Assembly: GCA_965112155.1 (NCBI GenBank)
Contig: OZ218098.1
DNA from: Podarcis liolepis
Taxonomy: Eukaryota
Reading direction: 5' to 3' (one strand)
DNA: 64,000 nt
Under the pieces are notes generated by a model that searched no databases, was not told the DNA's origin, and saw only the letters and a program-made list of their open reading frames with translations. This document shows, piece by piece, positions 34,333-36,896 of the stretch. The translations under genes were made by a program, and so were the position numbers. Position 1 is the stretch's first letter; every line of letters begins with the position of its first letter.

Positions 34333-34604
34333 TGCCCCAGGTAATGTGGCAGCAGCAGAACTGGAGGAGGAGCATAGCAGTCACTATAATCTCTCCAGGA
34401 ACCCACATGCTTGCTCGTCTGCAAGTCACTATCAAAATGGCATGGGTCACATGCAAAGTCACTGGGTGGAGCTCAGAGATGGTTGGGTCACAAAGGAGAA
34501 GACGGGCTGAAGCAATATTGTGATAATAATACCCCCTACTGAACTTAACTTTAATATTCAGTAAAGTGGAGAGTGAGTGTTTGTTATTGAAGTTATATCA
34601 ACAT

Positions 34605-35737
34605 TGTCAGGGAACTGCCATCGGAGGGACAGGAGGTGGAAGGGCTCTCAGAGGTTGGGAGAGACTCAGCAGCTGAAGAGGGAACCAGCAGGGGGAGAGA
34701 AGGAGCTCCGAGGGAAAGTGAGCGGGAGGGATGGCTCAGAGACACTTCCAGCGAAGGCAGTGGGGAGGTTTCAGGACCTCCTATAGGGACACCCACTCCT
34801 CGCCGGAAACTGTCACGCCGTGAGTCCAGAAGATGCGTTTCCGTCAAGGAGCTTTTATGTTGGAAGAGATTCCGTAAGCAGCCACTGTCGGAATCTGCCA
34901 GCGACTGACGGAGCCATGCTTAAGGGGCTCTGTTACAGACAGAGGTTTGCGGACTTAACCAAACTCTGAGGGACTAGGATTTTACGCACAAGCAGCTCAT
35001 CATCCCATCACAGCATTCCGACAGTCCTTGAAAGCAGCTTGTGCAGGGAAAGGCATCATGAGCAACCCAGCCGGAACCGGAGAAGCAGGAGCTGGAGCGG
35101 GTCCAAGCCTGGAAGAAAGGTACAGGTTGTTGGAGGTCCAGCTAGCGCTGCAGACGGCGAGGCTTGAGGAGAGGAGGGCTCAGGATGCAGAAAAGGGAAA
35201 AGCCACCCCGCTCGCCAGAAAGGTGCCAGGATTGGTGCAGAAGTTTGGGGGGGAGCCCAGGAACTATCATGCCTTTAGGACAGAGATGCAATATGCCCTC
35301 AATCTGCAGTTTGATGACTTTCCGGACGATGACTTTTCGCCACCTCGAAGGGGGGGCGAAGGACTGGGTTAGGCCCCTGATGGCAGTGAATAATGACATC
35401 CTAAAGGACACGAGGAAGTTTTTTCGTGCCATGGACCTGATGTTTTCCAGCGATATTGAGCAGGGAGTAGTGTGCAGACAGTTAATGGCTTGCAAACAGG
35501 GGAGCCGATCTGTCCGTGAGTACTGGACTGAGTTTACCATGTTGATCCATAAATTGGGGTGGGATCTAGCAGCGGAACCCATACAAATGCTTTTTGAAGA
35601 AGGGCTTTCTTCGGCTGTGAAAGACGAACTTTCCCGGGCGCCCAGGGCGGAGTCTATGGACCAGCTGACCAAATCAGCGCTGACCAAACTCTGAGGGACT
35701 AGGATTTTACGCACAAGCAGCTCATCATCCCATCACA
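34605..35737 (+). mobile_element. Ty3/gypsy (Tf1/sushi-like) LTR retrotransposon, internally deleted
   Basis: 5-bp TSD AACAT (34600-34604 and 35738-35742); TG...CA termini; 5' LTR 34605-35012; the last 55 bp of the LTR are repeated identically at 35683-35737; gag fragment in between. Confidence 0.92.
35058..35682 (+). pseudogene. Frameshifted, 3'-truncated gag (capsid) of sushi/PEG10-RTL type
   Basis: KFGGEPRNYHAFRTEMQ...DFPDD / HLEGGAKDW...KQGSRSVREYWTEF...LGW...FEEGLSSAVKDEL parallels Retrotrans_gag motifs (KFxG, GxAxxW, QGxxSVxxYxxxF, EGLSxxIxxEL); frameshift near 35332-35341. Confidence 0.88.
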
Positions 35738-35871
35738 AACATTCTCTACATCTGACAAGATACACACTCATCCAGGTGCCTAATACTTTGATTTGAATGT
35801 TCTTATTGACTGCAAAATAAGGAAGCAGCAATCTTTTATGGGGTTCAGTTTTGTTTTCTGTTTCTCTTCAG

Positions 35872-36705: not shown

Positions 36706-36896
36706 GATTTGATGAAAATCTGGATGTTCAGGGAGAACTGATCCTTCAAGATTCCTTTCAAGTGTGGGACCCCAAATCTCTCATCCGGAAGGGTCGTGAG
36801 AGACATTTGTTTCTCTTTGAAATTTCTCTTGTTTTCAGCAAAGAGATCAAAGATTCTGCAGGGCACACTAAATATGTTTACAAGAACAAATTACTG
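36706..36896 (+). CDS. KALRN: KALRN exon, PH1 (GFDENLDVQGELILQD...VYKNKLL)
   Basis: atgtag|GA ... CTG|gtatgt; 191 nt. Confidence 0.95.

Follow-up and report, generated by a model that had tools for sequence, protein, structure and literature searches.

A young lizard retrotransposon family whose primer-binding site pairs with its own LTR: genomic evidence for likely self-priming

Within the 64,000-nt stretch of the Podarcis liolepis genome analyzed in this study (contig OZ218098.1; hereafter the window), positions 34605-35737 hold a chromodomain Ty3/gypsy element of the Tf1/sushi group, a copy with an internal deletion that belongs to a young lizard family. [quoted passage not shown] In the proposed cycle, transcription would start at the A of the 11-mer (34884 in the window), the 5' end of the RNA would fold onto the PBS, aided by a stem between U5 and the leader, and the element RNase H would cut after base 11, as in Tf1, leaving a 3' end for minus-strand synthesis. 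Plus-strand synthesis would then copy the primer, so that a change in the LTR 11-mer would be carried over to the PBS after one or two cycles.

Structure of the window copy

The features of the window copy are given in Table 1. Directly after the 5' LTR (TGTCA...CATCACA) comes GC. As noted in the preliminary description of this DNA, TGG is absent there and 35015-35025 matches 34884-34894 exactly as its reverse complement; the pair is the sole inverted repeat of at least 11 nt in 34605-35060. The internal sequence extends for approximately 670 nt and then jumps, via a 4-nt microhomology, into the end of the 3' LTR, and the copy contains no pol, PPT or complete 3' LTR, while the 5-bp target duplication is intact on both flanks. 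With its gag broken and its interior deleted, this copy is dead, and the remaining piece of gag matches Retrotrans_gag. The element sits in an intron upstream of a Trio/Kalirin-type exon on the same strand, in a host gene that we take to be the paralog Kalirin. A short palindrome, GGAA-4 nt-TTCC, is located at 34862-34873 between the TATA-like site and the 11-mer; it is present in all family-A subfamilies, absent from family B, and possibly a promoter element.

Table 1. Features of the element and its surroundings in the window.
Feature	Positions	Strand	Basis
Left target-site duplication, AACAT	34600..34604	+	Sequence
5' LTR, 408 bp, TG...CA	34605..35012	+	96.6% to LTRs of closest full copies; ends set by paired LTRs and target duplications
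TTTTAT at -31 to -26, weakly TATA-like, not conserved	34853..34858	+	Variants counted among copies
Predicted self-primer, first 11 nt of R (putative start site)	34884..34894	+	Preceded by CC in 80/82 copies
U5 arm of predicted U5-leader stem	34986..34997	+	92.7% of cells paired; double-sided change in 3/12 pairs; 25 sequences
GC spacer, LTR to PBS	35013..35014	+	Sequence
11-nt primer-binding site complementary to 34884-34894	35015..35025	+	Exact complement, covariation
Leader arm of predicted U5-leader stem	35033..35044	+	11/12 pairs in window copy
5' part of gag, broken (frameshifted, truncated)	35058..35682	+	PF03732 (Pfam), E 4e-10; 20 gap positions vs full copy
Last 55 bp of 3' LTR, joined to gag by internal deletion	35683..35737	+	100% identical to 34958-35012
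Right target-site duplication, AACAT	35738..35742	+	Sequence
Host-gene exon (Trio/Kalirin-type)	36706..36877	+	PDB Trio match, E 9e-27

A young family of chromodomain elements

Searching the genome with the LTR gave 2,754 candidates, of which the best 40 were scored. Among 20 loci taken at 10 kb, 19 contained two LTRs, and these elements mostly span about 5.5 kb and have a PPT. A total of 120 loci were examined (20 LTR matches, 60 of 150 RT matches and 40 of 150 SH3 matches), and 100 contained both an RT and an LTR pair, with nine lacking an RT match and 11 lacking an LTR pair. The 82 copies retained for cleanly called ends passed a filter that demanded GCA after the LTR, so this sample is not fully independent of the PBS; of the 18 copies dropped, four still have an 11-nt match and two have a 9-10-nt match. 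Contig C20 (40 Mb) holds 23 of the 40 best LTR matches and most of the SH3 matches among those listed, as would be usual for heterochromatin or a sex chromosome rich in repeats.

The proposal that this is a young lizard family agrees with the data: 17 of the 82 copies have identical LTRs, the median LTR divergence is 0.66%, and the closest named relatives of the RT-RH region are lacertid lizard proteins (97% identical). The LTRs have TG...CA ends, a PPT precedes the 3' LTR, and 76 of the 82 copies are flanked by a 5/5 target duplication. LTR length variants of 408, 453 and 483 bp were observed (L056-L062, L070, L079-L110), in which the extra length falls in U3 and the 11-mer stays 129 nt from the LTR end. 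The U5 motif TTACGCAC is nearly invariant among copies.

The gag of a full copy contains a CCHC knuckle, and its pol consists of PR, RT, RNase H, integrase, a Tf2-type SH3 and a C-terminal chromodomain (Pfam RVP_2, RVT_1, RT_RNaseH, rve, SH3_Tf2-1 and Chromo), the last of which had been suggested as a feature to look for and is recognized here (E 1.7e-9). Gag and pol occupy frames 0 and 2 (a -1 relation), and the stretch where they overlap lacks a slippery heptamer of the form XXXYYYZ. The only PDB match to the full-copy gag is PEG10 (E 3.5e-5), in keeping with the sushi/PEG10-like character first ascribed to it; vertebrate Tf1/sushi elements are the group from which PEG10 and RTL1 descend. 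In an RT-RH tree of 39 rows, built by a quick method with a midpoint root and without a named Tf1, sushi or sushi-ichi row, the vertebrate clade (SH-aLRT 97) is nested in a clade with fungal elements and one amoebal element (99), and the plant, algal and arachnid rows fall outside. The lizard family lies in this fungal/vertebrate chromovirus clade and, judged from its sequence, is a young 5.5-kb chromodomain Ty3/gypsy chromovirus of the Tf1/sushi group.

Complementarity and covariation of the PBS and LTR

The partner of the PBS in the 82 full copies is an LTR 11-mer located approximately 129 nt from the LTR end. The longest PBS-LTR match is 11 nt in 60 copies, 12 nt in two and 10 nt in five. 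Of 100,000 random 16-mers, 38 gave an 11-nt match to the window LTR at offsets 0-5 by chance, and a control scan found own-LTR matches of at least 11 nt in only 4 of 53,182 internal windows. In the first 30 loci, some of which are segmental duplicates, all 11 pairs form in 25 and 10 of 11 in the other five. Pairing stops outside the 11-mer, occurring in 0/81 copies at position -2, 2/82 at -1 and 0/81 at +12.

Covariation was assessed in 25 of 28 non-redundant sequences, since three with deletions in the region were left out. In this set, 98.9% of the duplex cells pair and double-sided change is seen at 6 of the 11 pairs, compared to 25-38% of cells paired in slid controls of the whole structure, and RNAalifold recovers the 11-bp duplex unaided. 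Among the 82 copies, two or three Watson-Crick pair types each are found at positions 3, 4, 5, 7 and 10, with alternatives common to several copies, and at least six paired changes map to separate branches of the RT-region tree (counted by eye, on a tree whose root is distorted by large-indel copies). At least eight PBS variants were identified, each following its own LTR, and in L126, a distant single copy, complementarity to the copy's own LTR is again found with an entirely unrelated 11-mer. The PBS and the LTR 11-mer thus covary across subfamilies, the behavior that the preliminary description had put forward as a check on its reading. Weaker support comes from unphased variants: 34893 A>T and 35016 T>A fit covariation, and 34887 G>T is absent from X15/X16 and reaches 64%/49% in X18/X19, with 35022 C>A at 7%/0%/93%/96%. 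L126 (G000:C20:5648520-5657019) belongs to a related family with another LTR body and an AATAAA, and the complement of its 11-mer begins 1 nt after the LTR.

If the PBS is rewritten from the LTR, tight covariation would arise without paired mutations, since one mutation would suffice. Rewriting also predicts a lag, which fits four copies (L041, L044, L072 and L148) in which both LTRs have changed and the PBS is still old.

Beyond the PBS itself, the predicted U5-leader stem (Table 1) also shows double-sided change, and the duplex upstream of the PBS has at most two invariant pairs, past a bulge. Of the three duplexes of Tf1, the predicted central and U5-leader duplexes are therefore the two supported by covariation in this family. 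A hairpin supposed to form in R, between alignment columns 28-33 and 45-50, was rejected, with 60% of cells paired and zero double-sided change, and the predicted fold of 34884-35060 is no stabler than shuffles (z -1.08).

Rearranged copies joined at the 11-mer and the PBS

Rearranged copies, each of them a single copy in one assembly, may preserve traces of priming. L234 (the same copy as L231; G000:C1:38562868-38568629) is a single 5,762-bp insertion with TG...CA ends and a perfect 5-bp duplication, ATTGC. Its order is 5' LTR, PBS, gag, pol, PPT, U3, 11-mer, GC and an inverted complete LTR; the 3' LTR is read to base 290, the end of the 11-mer, and is followed by GC, with zero mismatches among the LTR-derived parts. 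This join likely links the primer to the beginning of the minus-strand DNA, as expected from pairing of the 11-mer and PBS in reverse transcription, and L234 as a whole is likely a reverse-transcription error product. We propose that it arises if the 11-mer of the 3' LTR primes, or if the PBS tail of the plus strand anneals to the 11-mer; the position of the join after base 11 fits cleavage there and also annealing of the plus-strand PBS tail. Autointegration was rejected as the origin of L234 because it predicts AG at the join, where GC is observed. A double chromosomal template switch or an assembly error is also a possible origin.

Two other copies break or fold back at the end of the PBS. 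L151 has a 1.5-kb deletion with a 6-nt microhomology that ends at the last PBS base. L154 consists of a lone LTR and PBS, after which 14 nt form the reverse complement of the sequence immediately preceding the 11-mer and lead into LINE DNA; 8 of the 14 fold-back bases are common to the LINE. L154/L216 (G000:C13:1978793) lies inside a 5'-truncated LINE that has its own 14-bp duplication, and part of the LINE is missing there.

Searches for further junctions gave no additional cases. None was found at PBS+1 to +4 or within the PBS, where 16 of 21 candidate matches were due to chance, and no new junction appeared in 30 loci and 20 stretches (partly the same places) drawn from 75 matches. A targeted join pattern gave three matches, of which only that in L231 (= L234) was real, and among a further 11 pattern matches LTR homology was restricted to the L234 copy. 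In contigs of four other runs, which can show presence only, no strand-changing joint was seen. Overall, we consider it reasonably probable that the genome holds integrated fossils of self-priming, comprising a primer-joined copy within one target duplication and copies breaking or folding back at the PBS end. Such joins would give a genome-only test of priming in vertebrates, would map primer ends without RNA data and, together with PBS rewriting, would explain the lockstep of PBS and LTR.

Start of the primer and alternative explanations

The preliminary description pointed to a weak TTTTAT approximately 30 nt upstream of the 11-mer. The motif is present, starting at -31 from 34884, but TTTAT occurs at the same place in only 44 of the 82 copies, and the youngest clades have CTCTTAT or CTCCTTT in its place. 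This variation among subfamilies rules it out as a conserved TATA box, and it is therefore poor evidence for the start site. RNA read ends from a related organism (85-99% alike, depth 5-45) form no pile at 34884 and are uninformative. In 80 of the 82 copies the 11-mer begins AC[T/A] after CC, which is initiator-like when compared with the initiator consensus, a likeness that is partly by construction because the AC[T/A] motif was used to locate the 11-mer.

It is possible, although improbable, that the family self-primes from an RNA that starts upstream of the 11-mer or at varying sites, with a primer that is trimmed or 5'-overhanging. L154 could be read in this way, since its PBS is followed by 6-14 additional nt that are complementary to U3, but fold-back of plus-strand DNA with its end at the PBS accounts for this sequence equally well. 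The nucleotide that follows the PBS (35026 in the window) is C for 240 of the 246 family-A PBSs, and this C is unable to pair with the nucleotide preceding the 11-mer; in the remaining six, which include L151 and L154, the following nucleotide is G in every case, as a primer one nucleotide longer would template. An excess of private changes is seen at the final base of the PBS (5/69, nominal p 5e-4, noticed post hoc, with the same number at 2 other of 180 positions), which counts against a start upstream of the 11-mer. Together with the initiator-like context, this excess would fit a primer beginning at 34884. As a speculation that draws on cap copying, the C after the PBS would pair with the cap G, and a G with one extra 5' base.

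Priming by a host tRNA, tRNA half or other host small RNA, with the LTR match incidental, is very unlikely. TGG was not found at offsets 0-5 in any of the 31 distinct post-LTR 16-mers, and their longest match to a partial set of 32 tRNA genes with 12 anticodons is 5-7 nt, which upholds the earlier view of a PBS without a host tRNA match as far as this small set extends. Half-tRNA priming does exist in copia elements according to PMC6317226, but covariation is a stronger argument against tRNA priming than the partial tRNA comparison and largely refutes it: the PBS variants track their own LTR, which a fixed host RNA cannot explain.

Just as remote is the explanation that the 11-bp duplex is a selected structural or packaging element, with priming occurring otherwise and the rearranged copies produced by chromosomal template switching at the inverted repeat in replication or repair. 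In its favor, any 11-bp inverted repeat can seed a fold-back, a double switch could in principle yield L234 through the imperfect inverted repeat present at the LTR ends, and L154 has no integrase-type duplication. Against it, the duplex is located 2 nt downstream of the LTR, at the place required for priming, no other primer site was found, and L234 could arise only through two precise switches, both U3 ends and the 5-bp duplication being preserved and the LTR parts remaining identical. Covariation, the absence of TGG and the copies joined at the 11-mer all favor the tRNA-independent self-priming originally suggested, with a start at 34884 that we infer.

Comparison with known self-priming elements

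Self-priming has been shown by experiment for Tf1/Tf2 of Schizosaccharomyces pombe (PMC7175516, PMC10085805, PMC11042837). In Tf1, the 5' end of the RNA anneals to the PBS and is cleaved by RNase H after its 11th base (PMC7175516), three duplexes are required (PMC10085805), and the cDNA often retains a single-stranded PBS tail (PMC11042837). The lizard family shares with Tf1/Tf2 a chromodomain integrase and, as predicted from its sequence, an 11-nt primer complementary to the PBS, a U5-leader duplex beside the PBS and a cDNA end carrying a PBS copy that could pair at other sites. It differs in its vertebrate host, in its -1 frame gag/pol and CCHC knuckle, where Tf1 has one ORF and no CCHC (PMC10085805), and in a third duplex of only two invariant pairs; the start and cleavage sites proposed here are also inferred.

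Accounts of self-priming in the Tf1/sushi group extend from yeast to vertebrates (PMC6317226, PMC4600332 and PMC10085805, citing Butler 2001). With vertebrate Tf1/sushi elements (sushi-ichi and relatives), the lizard family shares chromovirus anatomy, the -1 frame relation, predicted self-priming and a PEG10-like gag, and its LTR ends fit the TGTYANR / CNTNACA pattern given for sushi in PMC3601003. Unlike the fish-dominated Sushi LTR model, the lizard 5' LTRs have no AATAAA/ATTAAA downstream of the primer start (82/82 copies). Predicted self-priming, with PBS-LTR complementarity of at least 10 nt located 0-5 nt after the LTR, is also shared with the plant Tcn1 clade and TAR copia, which differ in host, TAR being a copia element (PMC6317226).

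In the portions of the literature examined, yeast Tf1 is the element with demonstrated self-priming, and for vertebrate Tf1/sushi elements it is at most predicted or implicated. No report of inverted joins or of a self-priming lizard family was found in the literature searched, a coverage that mostly excludes subscription journals. The lizard family contributes numerous compensatory changes together with an integrated product for which no tRNA-primed route is evident, and it suggests a cheap screen for any genome, namely PBS-to-R inverted joins with a target duplication. Compared to sushi, self-priming is here backed by covariation and rearranged copies. The mechanism itself is already known; it is the quality of the genomic support, above all L234, that sets the lizard family apart.
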